Shown: positions 51,812 through 61,905 of the stretch, one piece after another
How positions within the stretch are numbered: position 1 is the stretch's first letter
Layout of the letters: each line of letters begins with the position of its first letter
DNA from: a virus
Lineage: Duplodnaviria; Caudoviricetes
Direction: 5' to 3' (one strand)
Length of the DNA stretch: 64,000 nt
Virus record (IMG/VR): IMGVR_UViG_3300050146_000027
Coordinates: 1 to 64,000 of that record
Translations under genes and position numbers: made by a program
The notes under the pieces: model-generated
The model's database searches: none
Seen by the model: the letters and a program-made list of their open reading frames with translations, nothing else
Told to the model about the DNA's origin: nothing

Positions 51812-51842
51812 CTTGGTTCCTCAAAGTTATATCCAGAAAAAG

Positions 51843-51864
51843 AAAAGCCCCCGAAGGGGCTTTT
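51843..51864. terminator. terminator with UUCG loop on the - strand
   Basis: AAAAGCCCC-CGAA-GGGGCTTTT. Confidence 0.85.
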
Positions 51865-51882
51865 CACACTGCCGATCGGAGA

Positions 51883-57702: not shown

Positions 57703-57739
57703 ATTGAAAGACCGCAGCCCAGAGAAAGAGCTGCGGTCT
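57703..57739 (-). terminator. terminator-like hairpin
   Basis: - strand AGACCGCAGC(TC)...(GG)GCTGCGGTCT then TTCAATTT. Confidence 0.6.
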
Positions 57740-58450: not shown

Positions 58451-59185
58451 TTAGCCCATTGCTTTGATGACACATCGTCGGATTTGTTCTTCAGATGCAT
58501 CGATTGGGATCCCGATCTCTTCACACCATGTTGGCCAGAAAATGGAGAGCTCGCCTCCAAGTTTGACTTCATCGTGCTGGATGTCGGGATGGTCCTGCCA
58601 CTGCACAGCCTTCACGAGGTGCTCATTGGTGTACATGACTGCATTGATGTCATCGCGGACAAGCATGTACTGGGCATCGTGGATGTGGGCACATGGCCGG
58701 ATGTCGAGGCGGTGTCCTGACTTGCGGACACCACCCATGAATTCTGCACTGGCTCGGCTGTTCAGTAAACACCAAGATTGGCCAAGAGCATTGCCGGCCG
58801 TTCGACCTTCTGCCTCAGCTTCATAGGGTGTTTTGCTGTTGCCTCTGATCACTTGCTTGAGCAAGGGTGTGCGAAGACGCAGACCAAATGCTGCAGTGAT
58901 GTAGCCATCTTTCGAGGCCTGATCAAGCTTGGCCTGTACCCAGGCATCACTAATCTTGTAGAGCTCGTGATACCTGGCTTCCACCATCAATGCCTTCTCT
59001 TTGGAGAAGCCGCAATTCTTGATCAGAGTGATGTAGGTTCCCTGGTAGGTCAGTGCAAAAGTGGGTGCTTTGCTGTCCTGACGTTGTGGCTTGTAGAGGT
59101 CCTGGATCGAGTTGATCTCAGCGACGTTAAAGTCTCGCAATGGAACCTCCTCTATCTTGGCTCCAGGCTTGAGTTGAATTTGCAT
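58451..59185 (-). CDS. DNA polymerase (family A), C-terminal part carrying motifs B and C
   Basis: RQDSKAPTFALTYQG (motif B), RTAGNALGQS, HIHDAQY (motif C); GGAG RBS before ATG 59185. Confidence 0.9.
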   Translation of the reverse strand: MQIQLKPGAKIEEVPLRDFNVAEINSIQDLYKPQRQDSKAPTFALTYQGTYITLIKNCGFSKEKALMVEARYHELYKISDAWVQAKLDQASKDGYITAAFGLRLRTPLLKQVIRGNSKTPYEAEAEGRTAGNALGQSWCLLNSRASAEFMGGVRKSGHRLDIRPCAHIHDAQYMLVRDDINAVMYTNEHLVKAVQWQDHPDIQHDEVKLGGELSIFWPTWCEEIGIPIDASEEQIRRCVIKAMG

Positions 59186-59197
59186 GATTGCTCCGAT

Positions 59198-59227
59198 AAA
59201 AAAGCCGCCCACATTTCTGTAGGCGGC
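59198..59227 (-). terminator. intrinsic-terminator-like hairpin between the two polymerase halves
   Basis: - strand GCCGCCTAC-AGAAAT-GTGGGCGGC-TTTTTT. Confidence 0.75.
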
Positions 59228-59233
59228 CCCCCA

Positions 59234-61384
59234 TCATGAAGTGAAATGGTCTTCCACGTTCATGACAGTACCATCTGGCAGGGCGACAGTATCCCCTTCC
59301 ACCAGATAGATCACTTCGTCACCTTGGGTGACACGAAAAGCTTTCACACTTTCCACTTGTCGGATCAAAGGCATCTCTGAACCAAAGTAGGCATAAGCAC
59401 GCAGGCTGTGGCCGTCGTAGCCGTCGGTGTAAACCTTCAGCTTGTTCGGGTCCTTTGTTGTCAAGGCACTGATGCGGTCTTCGAGAGATGCGAAGTCCAA
59501 ACCACAAAACAACCATCCAGGTGGTGCTTGGAAGCAGCTCTTGATGAGCTTGCCCAAATGGAGCTTGCCTTTCTTGATGAACTTGCCAGCTCCCATGGAT
59601 TCCAGCAACACCAGCACAGCAGCCACCAGCGCAACCTCCACGTTGGCAGGGAGGTTCTGCAGGTTTGGTTCACTGGAACTGAGTCGACCAGACAGAGTCC
59701 CACCAAGGTTGAAGTTGCCGAACAAGTAGTGCCAGCCGTCAGGTCCGAGAGCAGCATTTTTCATCGCTGGGATGAATGATGTGAGGATCTTGTTCACTGC
59801 ACCGTAGTCCAGCATGGCTGCAAGGAACTCTTTCACCTCGGGAGTCTTGGCGTGGTTGACCAAGGCTTCTAAAGTGTCACGATCAACTGAAGGTTGTTTG
59901 CTGGCTGTCAACCCAATGACAGGCATTCCCAGAATTTCAAACAAGATCTCTTGCAGTTGCGGGCCTGAGTTGGGATTGAAAGTGATTTCAGTGCGAATGG
60001 CCTCAGAGGTTTGGCTTGCAGCTAACATCTCTTGAACAGTCATTCGCTTTTTCTTCCACTCCTTGTTTTTTTCCTCAGTGAATCGTTCGAGTCGGGTGTA
60101 CTCGTACTCCTGAATCAGCTTGCATTGATGGATCGTATTCAGAGCATGGTCGTAGACCACGGTCAGAATGCTCTCTACTTTGAGAACCTGGTCCATGCTG
60201 AGTGGCAGGCCAGTCAACTGCATCTGGATGATGTCAGTCGTCGCTGGCTTGAACAGACTTTGGTACACGTTCAGCTGCTGATCGTTGACCATCGTTTGGT
60301 AGTGTTTTTCATGCACATACCATGTGGAGAGGGCATCGACCAAGTTGTACCGCAAGAGCTTTGGCAAAGGTATCTTTGTGATGTCCTTGATGTCATCGTC
60401 GTTCATCGCGTAGTTGCCAGAATACTCTTGAGACTGGTCTTTGAGACCGAGCTTGTTACCAGCGCAGCTGTTGGTGGCCAAGTAGGTGATCAGCTTGGTG
60501 TCGTCCCAGCATCGCAGCATCACGTCGATACCTTCGAGCAAGCCTTCTGTGTCCAATAGATCTTTCATGTAGAGCTGATAGATCAACACGTACACGTCGA
60601 AGCTGATGTTGTGCCAGATCATTTGCTTGAGGTAGCGATTGAAAAAGTCTTTCAGCAGTGCACGCACAGGCCCGTTACGGGCGTTGCGCCCATACGGTGC
60701 TTCGGTAGCATCTTCGATCGGCTCGTAGTCTACCGCAAAGGCAATGCCCTCGTGCTTGTTCCAGGCCAGTGCAATGCTGCCAATGCCGGCCTTGTGGTGC
60801 TTTAGATCGAAGGCTTCAATGTCGGCTGTGAAATCCACATTCATAGCCAGCAGCTTCTCCAAAGCAGCAGCGATCTCAGTTGGTCCGGATGGGTACTCTT
60901 CGTACTTGATGATGTCTGTGCCTGGTGCTTGGTAGCTGCCGGCAACGTGATCAAGCAGAGCGTTTATGCCCTGCTTGATCTTTGCACGAACCTTTTCAGG
61001 ATCGTAGAACACAGCCCGGTAGCTTGGAACGTAGACCACCTTCCAAGGACCAAACACGCAGTCCATCATGTAGCCAAGATTTGCCTCAGTCTTGGCAGAC
61101 TTTGTCAGTACCTTGAAGTAGTCGCTGTCGGCAACGATCAGGTACTTGGCCTGGCTGTCCTGGAGCACAGGCACCAACTCGCTTTTGATGAATTGCTTCA
61201 TCTCTTCGGCTGGCGTCTTCTTTTTGGTCTGAGAGTAGTGCAGATCGCAGATCAGCACATCATCTTCTGGGATACCAAAAGGAGTGAGGTATTCCTTTTG
61301 GATCTCATCCTTACGGATGGTGGGGACCAGAAACACCAGTGGGTAGGTGACCAGATCTTGTTGTGAGTAGAACAGCTGTCTCAT
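59234..61384 (-). CDS. DNA polymerase (family A), N-terminal part: 3'-5' exonuclease and motif A
   Basis: FTADIEAF (ExoI), WHNISFDV (ExoII), YNLVDALST (ExoIII), GRLSSSEPNLQN, GLDFASLEDR (motif A). Confidence 0.92.
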   Translation of the reverse strand: MRQLFYSQQDLVTYPLVFLVPTIRKDEIQKEYLTPFGIPEDDVLICDLHYSQTKKKTPAEEMKQFIKSELVPVLQDSQAKYLIVADSDYFKVLTKSAKTEANLGYMMDCVFGPWKVVYVPSYRAVFYDPEKVRAKIKQGINALLDHVAGSYQAPGTDIIKYEEYPSGPTEIAAALEKLLAMNVDFTADIEAFDLKHHKAGIGSIALAWNKHEGIAFAVDYEPIEDATEAPYGRNARNGPVRALLKDFFNRYLKQMIWHNISFDVYVLIYQLYMKDLLDTEGLLEGIDVMLRCWDDTKLITYLATNSCAGNKLGLKDQSQEYSGNYAMNDDDIKDITKIPLPKLLRYNLVDALSTWYVHEKHYQTMVNDQQLNVYQSLFKPATTDIIQMQLTGLPLSMDQVLKVESILTVVYDHALNTIHQCKLIQEYEYTRLERFTEEKNKEWKKKRMTVQEMLAASQTSEAIRTEITFNPNSGPQLQEILFEILGMPVIGLTASKQPSVDRDTLEALVNHAKTPEVKEFLAAMLDYGAVNKILTSFIPAMKNAALGPDGWHYLFGNFNLGGTLSGRLSSSEPNLQNLPANVEVALVAAVLVLLESMGAGKFIKKGKLHLGKLIKSCFQAPPGWLFCGLDFASLEDRISALTTKDPNKLKVYTDGYDGHSLRAYAYFGSEMPLIRQVESVKAFRVTQGDEVIYLVEGDTVALPDGTVMNVEDHFTS

Positions 61385-61392
61385 TGTTGCTC

Positions 61393-61905
61393 CTAGCAGA
61401 CCAGTGCTGCAACCGAATAGGCTTGAATCAAAGGCAAAGCTTTTTCGTATGCACGCACAGCATACGGATCGCTTCTGATGAAGACAGTGTTGTCTTCTTT
61501 GGTTCTCGACAGGTGGGAGATCTGCGGGATCAAATGGATCAAGCACTCCGGCAAAGAATCCCTGATGTCCTGCACACTAGTGCAGTTGATGAGCAAAGGG
61601 GCAAGGGCTTGCTTGATGCGTGCTTTGTCATTCTCTATCTGAGCCATGTCAGCGTCGAACTGAGTTAGTTTGTCCTGCAGATGAAAACCTAGAGTGGGAA
61701 CAGGGTAATTGCTCAAAACCTTATTCTGAGATTCGTAATTTGGATCTATGTACTTCTTGCCGTGGTGCATAAACCCAAAATGCTGTATGCCAATGCGCTG
61801 GCTGTTTTCTTTATTGAGCTGACTGACAACCCTCCCAAGCCTTTTGGTGTCAGGCTGGAAAAGGTTGGCAATGATCATGTCAACCCATTCGTGTGCATTC
61901 TGCAT
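61393..61905 (-). CDS. N4 gp38-like hypothetical protein
   Basis: QDIRDSLPECL motif; synteny between helicase and polymerase. Confidence 0.7.
   Translation of the reverse strand: MQNAHEWVDMIIANLFQPDTKRLGRVVSQLNKENSQRIGIQHFGFMHHGKKYIDPNYESQNKVLSNYPVPTLGFHLQDKLTQFDADMAQIENDKARIKQALAPLLINCTSVQDIRDSLPECLIHLIPQISHLSRTKEDNTVFIRSDPYAVRAYEKALPLIQAYSVAALVC

Follow-up and report, generated by a model that had tools for sequence, protein, structure and literature searches.

The locus considered here raises the question of why a family A DNA polymerase should be encoded by two consecutive open reading frames (ORFs), with one part of the active site in each, and whether such a gene is broken, rejoined during expression, or genuinely made as two chains. 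The stretch of DNA analyzed, referred to throughout as the window, is 64,000 nt long and covers the start of a viral genome that forms a single contig of 75,132 bp (IMG/VR record IMGVR_UViG_3300050146_000027; Duplodnaviria, Caudoviricetes). A sequence-only reading of the window had described a polymerase interrupted by a single in-frame TGA, with a hairpin and a new ribosome-binding site behind it, and had proposed either a heterodimeric enzyme whose halves dock through new terminal extensions or a regulated readthrough of the stop. Comparison with related sequences indicates that the split is genuine and conserved and that the locus is a case of 'genes in pieces', with two genes for one family A polymerase.

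One polymerase in two reading frames

The two minus-strand ORFs, 59234-61546(-) and 58451-59212(-), lie in one common reading frame, and relatives back starts at 61384 for the upstream product (N-half) and at 59185 for the downstream product (C-half). Together the halves form a family A DNA polymerase of the N4 gp39 type, in which motifs A, B, and C are collinear across both ORFs. On the Pfam profile DNA_pol_A (PF00476), the N-half matches positions 13–199 (E 2e-25) and the C-half positions 199–303 (E 3e-8, which taken alone falls 0.7 bits below the Pfam cut-off), and this coverage confirms the earlier placement of motif A upstream of the break and of motifs B and C downstream. The N-half aligns to Pol I chains in the PDB until the residues just ahead of the break, and the C-half aligns to a Pol I chain starting just past it. 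Both halves are assigned to phrog_17, and their identity to named N4-like (Schitoviridae) polymerases ranges from 58 to 75%; the N-half is 62% identical to the enzyme of Erwinia phage phiEaP8, aligned from residue 1, and the C-half is 75% identical to that of phiEaP8 and 72% identical to that of N4. No other ORF resembling a polymerase was noticed in the window.

The polymerases of phiEaP8, ort11, and Zuri are each encoded by a single continuous ORF. The two ORFs of the window are collinear with this single ORF, each with its own translation signals, and hold ~73 extra codons at one point between conserved flanks, which bears out the statement in the sequence-only reading that these flanks nearly adjoin in N4-type enzymes. 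In the Pol I chain that is the nearest with a solved structure, the insertion point falls in a loop of ~9 residues. The extra material consists of a 43-amino acid tail at the C-terminus of the N-half, a spacer measuring 48 nt from the TGA to the start of the C-half, and a 19-amino acid arm at the N-terminus of the C-half. On phiEaP8, the BLAST matches of the N-half and the C-half share 30 nt, which indicates that ~8–10 native loop residues remain, although diverged, at each edge of the break. The last ~8 residues of the arm resemble a second copy of the native loop that is also retained at the end of the N-half core.

Conservation of the break and its extensions

Relatives of both halves come from metagenomic N4-like contigs and are broken at the same place. 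When proteins of similar length were searched with the C-half, >1600 matches were obtained, many of them 243–255 amino acids long, covering the query from residue 1, and located on ~70-kb contigs; ~60 distinct C-halves begin with the same arm pattern. For the tail, a search was scored on the last 77 residues of the N-half only, and ~100 of the best 120 matches proved to be N-halves of ~660–720 amino acids ending in a recognizably homologous tail. Alignment to relatives thus finds the break point and both extensions conserved, and the earlier judgment that the interruption is not a sequencing error holds, given the same break in ~100 N-halves and ~60 C-halves.

The ratio of nonsynonymous to synonymous change (pN/pS), computed for the window against the close relative L007, is 0.03 for the polymerase core of either half, compared with 0.26 for the tail and 0.14 for the arm. 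On this measure both halves are under strong purifying selection, and the extensions are under a weaker but real constraint at the protein level. No cultured phage in the collection shows the tail or arm of the window, either by nucleotide search or by tblastn with the tail or arm alone, and a protein atlas search with the tail gave no usable match. When a tail profile was compared with 1.8 billion representatives, the matches beyond polymerase N-halves consisted mainly of unrelated repeat proteins with a common beta-hairpin motif. A literature search for split N4-like polymerases did not find a description of them.

A homing endonuclease in the gap of related loci

The gap between the halves is occupied in several relatives. 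At the position of the window's break (site 1), L033, L035, and L037 hold an ORF of 207–235 amino acids whose start overlaps the end of the tail and whose end overlaps the start of the arm; it carries HNH_3 and/or NUMOD4 domains, of the I-HmuI type, in L033 and L035 and HNH-like sequence motifs in L037. The sequence-only reading had stressed the lack of an intervening element, and this is true of the window, but the relatives hold an HNH gene in exactly that gap. Neither an endonuclease gene nor a homologue of the relatives' HNH is present in the whole 75-kb genome, window included. The comparison leads us to regard the window as the endonuclease-free remnant of such a cassette locus, at a site that is not represented among the cultured phages searched.

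A second split site (site 2), ~25 codons upstream of site 1, is found in L004, L005, and the cultured coliphage Pollock, for which the GenBank annotation reads polymerase, HNH homing endonuclease, polymerase. The site-2 HNH is homologous to the site-1 HNH (30–34% identity, E ~1e-20). The tails are also related across the two sites: one site-1 tail matches the Pollock site-2 tail with a BLASTP pairwise E of 6e-9, and the site-1 tail profile scores 14–17 bits on site-2 tails, two of the three scoring above all 200 shuffles. Homologous tails at two different sites suggest that the tail belongs to the mobile cassette and not to the polymerase.

Several other features of these loci were observed. 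The gap in L034:5061-5709, L095:880-1500, and L103:1833-2526 contains no endonuclease but two or three small ORFs that match nothing in Pfam, and would seem to be a cargo slot. The site-2 arms (L004:4001-4085 and others) align with the native segment after motif A, like a degenerate second copy of the sequence upstream of the insertion; flank duplication may be a general feature of cassette insertion. The endonuclease-bearing site-1 loci, from independent samples, all have a short insertion in the motif B codons ~100 nt downstream of the endonuclease gene (5 nt with a TAG in L033:5790-5840, 1 nt in L035:5905-5935, and 6 nt with an in-frame TAG in L037:1590-1615). These insertions yield a stop or a frameshift, and five other loci checked, along with the window, are intact there. 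They could represent protection of the endonuclease target that needs recoding, as with T4 gene 60 and mobA, or they could represent decay.

Spacer, hairpin, and translation of the second half

A purine-rich stretch resembling a Shine-Dalgarno (SD) sequence lies just upstream of the start of the second ORF in every short endonuclease-free junction examined. In L007, whose C-half is 97% identical to that of the window, the spacer is 47 nt long compared with 48 nt in the window, and the two halves are out of frame. The halves are also out of frame in L006, L036, L043, and L099, and the spacer of L102 has additional stops; L100 and L008 are like the window, with the halves in frame and one TGA between them. 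Because the SD-like stretch is found in all short junctions and the halves of these relatives are out of frame, the second half appears to be initiated independently. The shared frame remarked upon in the sequence-only reading is therefore true of the window but is not conserved, and is, as judged from these junctions, a coincidence.

The junction region folds better than shuffled sequences (z = -5). Within the clade of the window, L007, and L100, the pairing of the stem and its GNRA loop are kept, and the stem of L100 has a compensatory double change from G-C to A-U together with a change from A-U to G-U. Hairpins of unrelated sequence occupy the same position in L006, L036, L102, L099, and L008, and the hairpin shape recurs in six of the nine short junctions. 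A U-run follows the hairpin in the window, L007, L100, L006, L036, and, weakly, L008. The endonuclease-bearing junctions have overlapping ORFs in place of a hairpin. The junction hairpin was missed by a consensus terminator scan, probably as a result of G-U pairs that let the stem continue into the U-run. Rfam yielded nothing relevant; a weak match resembling an S-adenosylmethionine/S-adenosylhomocysteine (SAM/SAH) riboswitch (E 0.13, 19 bits against a cut-off of 40 bits) corresponds to the hairpin plus the SD sequence. The most likely role of the hairpin is partial termination, or stabilization of RNA 3' ends, between the cistrons, and the element would have arisen after loss of the endonuclease. 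It should be noted that L006 derives from a low-coverage contig with a frameshift in the N-half upstream of motif A (L006:3600-3720), probably introduced during assembly; in other respects the L006 junction is typical.

Phylogenetic distribution of split and one-piece forms

A tree was built on the conserved C-terminal core of the polymerase. One-piece, site-1-split, and site-2-split forms are thoroughly interleaved on this tree, and its well-supported branches force at least 8–13 changes of state, a pattern expected of a homing element with co-conversion of flanks. The metagenomic sequence P0030 has a conserved core identical to that of the N4 polymerase (L011) and yet is split at site 2, which implies that the cassette moves among very close relatives of N4.

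A proposed origin for the split polymerase

The explanation favored here, to which we assign a probability of about 0.78, is a two-gene polymerase that was invaded by a cassette and has lost the endonuclease, with halves that are translated separately and assemble non-covalently. A mobile cassette composed of a tail extension for the upstream half, a free-standing I-HmuI-like HNH gene, and a new start with an arm extension would have entered an ancestral one-piece gene of the N4 gp39 type at the fingers loop, which lies between motifs A and B. Loss of the endonuclease gene in the lineage of the window's phage would have left behind the tail, the stop, the hairpin with its U-run, the ribosome-binding site, and the arm. 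Both halves would be translated separately and, since the motifs are divided between the chains (A on the first, B and C on the second), they would have to assemble non-covalently. The conserved tail and arm most likely help the halves assemble, and the hairpin most likely acts between the cistrons as a partial terminator or RNA-end stabilizer; RNA splicing, protein splicing, and stop-codon readthrough would not be needed. Support for an active assembled enzyme comes solely from the purifying selection on both halves. Of the two alternatives in the sequence-only reading, the heterodimer is the better supported, in that two conserved and constrained chains have start signals of their own, and a docking role for the tail and arm is something that we infer.

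Several observations weigh against this explanation. First, the origin from an endonuclease is deduced from relatives because none is found in this genome. Second, the arms of the two sites were compared and have no detectable homology. Third, the hairpin of L008 is only weak, those of L099 and L102 are without a U-run, and a response of the phage's own middle-gene RNA polymerase to the hairpin is hypothetical. Fourth, in an AlphaFold model of the 977-amino acid read-through product (overall predicted local distance difference test score, pLDDT, of 81), pLDDT is 66–73 in the tail and 54–69 in the arm, and no contact between tail and arm is shown. That model is poor at the junction and in the fingers, owing to an alignment in which tails and motif B were confused. 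The predicted secondary structure of the tail, four short beta strands and a short helix at low confidence, was the same in a 129-amino acid junction construct that had a cleaner alignment and a mean pLDDT of 52.

Finally, there are one-piece forms with a contiguous 35–41-amino acid insert at site 1 (P0207 and L005/P0024), and their existence means that such a mini-insert could predate the split. In the junction alignment, the insert of these forms looks like a direct fusion of tail and arm from which the end of the tail, the spacer, and the beginning of the arm are missing, and the forms make up one small clade among split forms. These features fit a secondary re-fusion, and the reverse order, with the mini-insert first and the split later, could be an alternative.

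A more specific proposal, tentative and rather doubtful in our estimation, is that the tail and a site-specific arm constitute a portable, non-splicing 'clasp' carried by the HNH cassette and kept after endonuclease loss as a heterodimerization module, maybe descended from the endonuclease-proximal lobe of a split intein. With such a clasp, the cassette could insert at more than one position in a polymerase that the phage cannot do without and still leave the phage viable.

Alternative explanations

Among explanations that depart from the cassette-split, non-covalently assembling polymerase, the one that survives best, though improbable, is that the tail and arm derive from a split intein, of which they would retain the portion of the N-fragment beside the endonuclease slot and the start of the C-fragment, and that they either still trans-splice or have been reduced to a non-splicing association module. 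The gene order in relatives (half plus tail, free-standing endonuclease, arm plus half) mirrors that of the 'fractured genes' (Dassa et al. 2009, PMC2677866), and the best PDB match of a profile of 16 tails is 9hth_A, the Aes123 PolB1 split intein of a phage polymerase, although at an E of 0.29. One Hint-repeat protein is present among the tail-profile matches, but most of the others are unrelated repeat proteins and no bridge leads to true inteins. Pfam detects no Hint or intein family in any tail, and profile-profile comparison (hhalign) with the resident polymerase inteins gives a probability of ≤2% in alignments that are not collinear. With 43 + 19 = 62 amino acids, the extensions amount to less than half of the minimal intein fold of 130–150 amino acids (PMC11923092). 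The insert starts without a conserved Cys/Ser, and the arm ends in Asp/Asn and then Val, so that there is no +1 nucleophile. An intein-derived origin without splicing is itself of low probability.

True inteins do occur in N4-like polymerases, at another site. They are located in a conserved segment upstream of motif A in P0202 (residues 355-544), P0213, and P0241-P0249, and bear the Pfam Intein_splicing domain, a Cys at position 1, and His-Asn-Ser at the end. In P0202, P0213, and P0201 the intein is combined with a site-1 split.

Less probable still is that the ~220 nt between the conserved flanks are a small self-splicing group I-like intron, such that the mature mRNA would encode a one-piece polymerase. 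The I-HmuI-type endonucleases of Bacillus phages are classically encoded in group I introns of family A polymerase genes, and the kinship of the relatives' endonucleases to this type is a point in favor of an intron, as are the better-than-shuffled folding of the region and a length that a minimal group I intron could have. Because some group I introns are as small as this insert, the argument in the sequence-only reading that there was no room for an intron is invalid; the intron is rejected on other grounds. Rfam detects no intron, with the threshold set at E 10 for the window junction and at E 1 for six related loci, endonuclease-bearing ones included. The tail stays an open frame with a protein-like pattern of substitution in ~100 divergent sequences, nonsynonymous change is lower than synonymous change in both tail and arm, the arm always comes with an SD-like stretch and a start codon, and the endonuclease ORFs overlap both halves as coupled cistrons do.

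Programmed UGA readthrough or a selenocysteine-like event, with the hairpin as a stimulator, would join the halves into one chain and is slightly less credible again. The in-frame halves and single TGA of the window, L100, and L008 are what this explanation calls for, and the hairpin begins 6 nt past the stop, but the spacer is not conserved as protein and, in L102, contains extra stops. As a conserved mechanism, readthrough is ruled out by the out-of-frame halves of five relatives, and the combination of regulated TGA readthrough and antitermination put forward in the sequence-only reading falls with it, the closest relative being one of the five. Least credible is a nonsense mutation, an assembly error, or a decaying pseudogene, since a single stop in an otherwise continuous frame has the typical look of an error but many independent assemblies show the same architecture, purifying selection acts strongly on both halves, and the gap holds ~73 extra codons with dedicated translation signals instead of a point change.

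Relationship to known split genes

The nearest cultured parallel is the N4-like phage Pollock (KM236242), in which a gp39-type polymerase is annotated as two coding sequences (gp44 and gp46) with an HNH gene (gp45) between them. As in the window, the N-half of Pollock ends in a homologous tail of ~45 amino acids and the C-half opens with a short new arm, and the HNH belongs to the same family as the HNH in the gap of the window's relatives. Unlike the window, Pollock is split at site 2 with the endonuclease still present, its ORFs overlap without a hairpin, and its arm has no detectable similarity to the site-1 arm.

Among T4-like phages, the nrdA gene of Aeh1 is split by mobE, and split gp43 polymerases also occur. 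Genes placed in pieces by free-standing homing endonucleases in T4-like phages have been reviewed (PMC2988022). The window would resemble these cases in that a selfish nuclease gene has divided an essential replication enzyme between two chains, which are translated separately and come together again with no splicing, and would differ in that the enzyme is a family A polymerase of N4-like podophages, the endonuclease has been lost, and the cassette adds conserved peptide extensions. We know of no description of such extensions for the nrdA case.

SPO1-like Bacillus phages have group I introns with I-HmuI-type HNH genes in their family A polymerase genes. The endonuclease family (NUMOD4 / HNH_3 / I-HmuI_NUMOD-like) and the kind of target gene are the same as in the window's relatives; in contrast, no intron RNA is detected here, and the interrupted gene appears as two cistrons that are not spliced. 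Fractured genes combine split inteins with a free-standing endonuclease (Dassa et al. 2009, PMC2677866), and the Aes123 PolB1 split intein (PMC11923092) is found in a phage polymerase. The order of half plus extension, endonuclease gene, and extension plus half is common to fractured genes and to the window's relatives, whereas the extensions described here are far too short, lack catalytic residues, have no Hint match, and give no sign of protein splicing.

If the proposed origin is correct, a large and mostly uncultivated branch of N4-like phages would replicate with a two-chain family A polymerase. Annotation of the Schitoviridae and phylogenies that use the polymerase as a marker should join both ORFs and expect recombination around the site. 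The natural series of one-piece, endonuclease-bearing split, empty split, and re-fused mini-insert forms could be used to study how selfish nucleases fracture genes and also how the host gene copes. Should the tail and arm be a self-contained association module, they may provide a small natural tool to reassemble split proteins without splicing chemistry.

Coordinates of the locus

The coordinates and fold of the TGA, GC-rich hairpin, U-run, ribosome-binding site, and new ATG agree with those in the sequence-only reading (Table 1).

Table 1. Features of the split polymerase locus, in window coordinates
Feature	Coordinates	Strand	Description
Polymerase N-half, coding sequence	59237..61384	-	716 amino acids; 3'-5' exonuclease region, thumb, and palm with motif A
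N-half stop TGA	59234-59236	-	
N-half C-terminal tail	59237..59365	-	43 amino acids; insert relative to one-piece N4-type enzymes, which have no tail
Intercistronic hairpin	59198..59227	-	10-bp stem with GAAA loop (59204-59227), then U6 (59198-59203); looks like an intrinsic terminator
Shine-Dalgarno GGAG	59191-59194	-	5-nt spacer to the C-half ATG (59183-59185)
C-half N-terminal arm	59129..59185	-	19 amino acids
Polymerase C-half, coding sequence	58454..59185	-	244 amino acids; fingers with motif B and palm with motif C
C-half stop	58451-58453	-	

Two more strong elements composed of a hairpin and a T-run occur on the same strand downstream of the polymerase genes, at 57709-57739 (-) and 51842-51865 (-), with stems of 12 and 10 bp, respectively, and the replication-gene region therefore holds several terminator-like sites.

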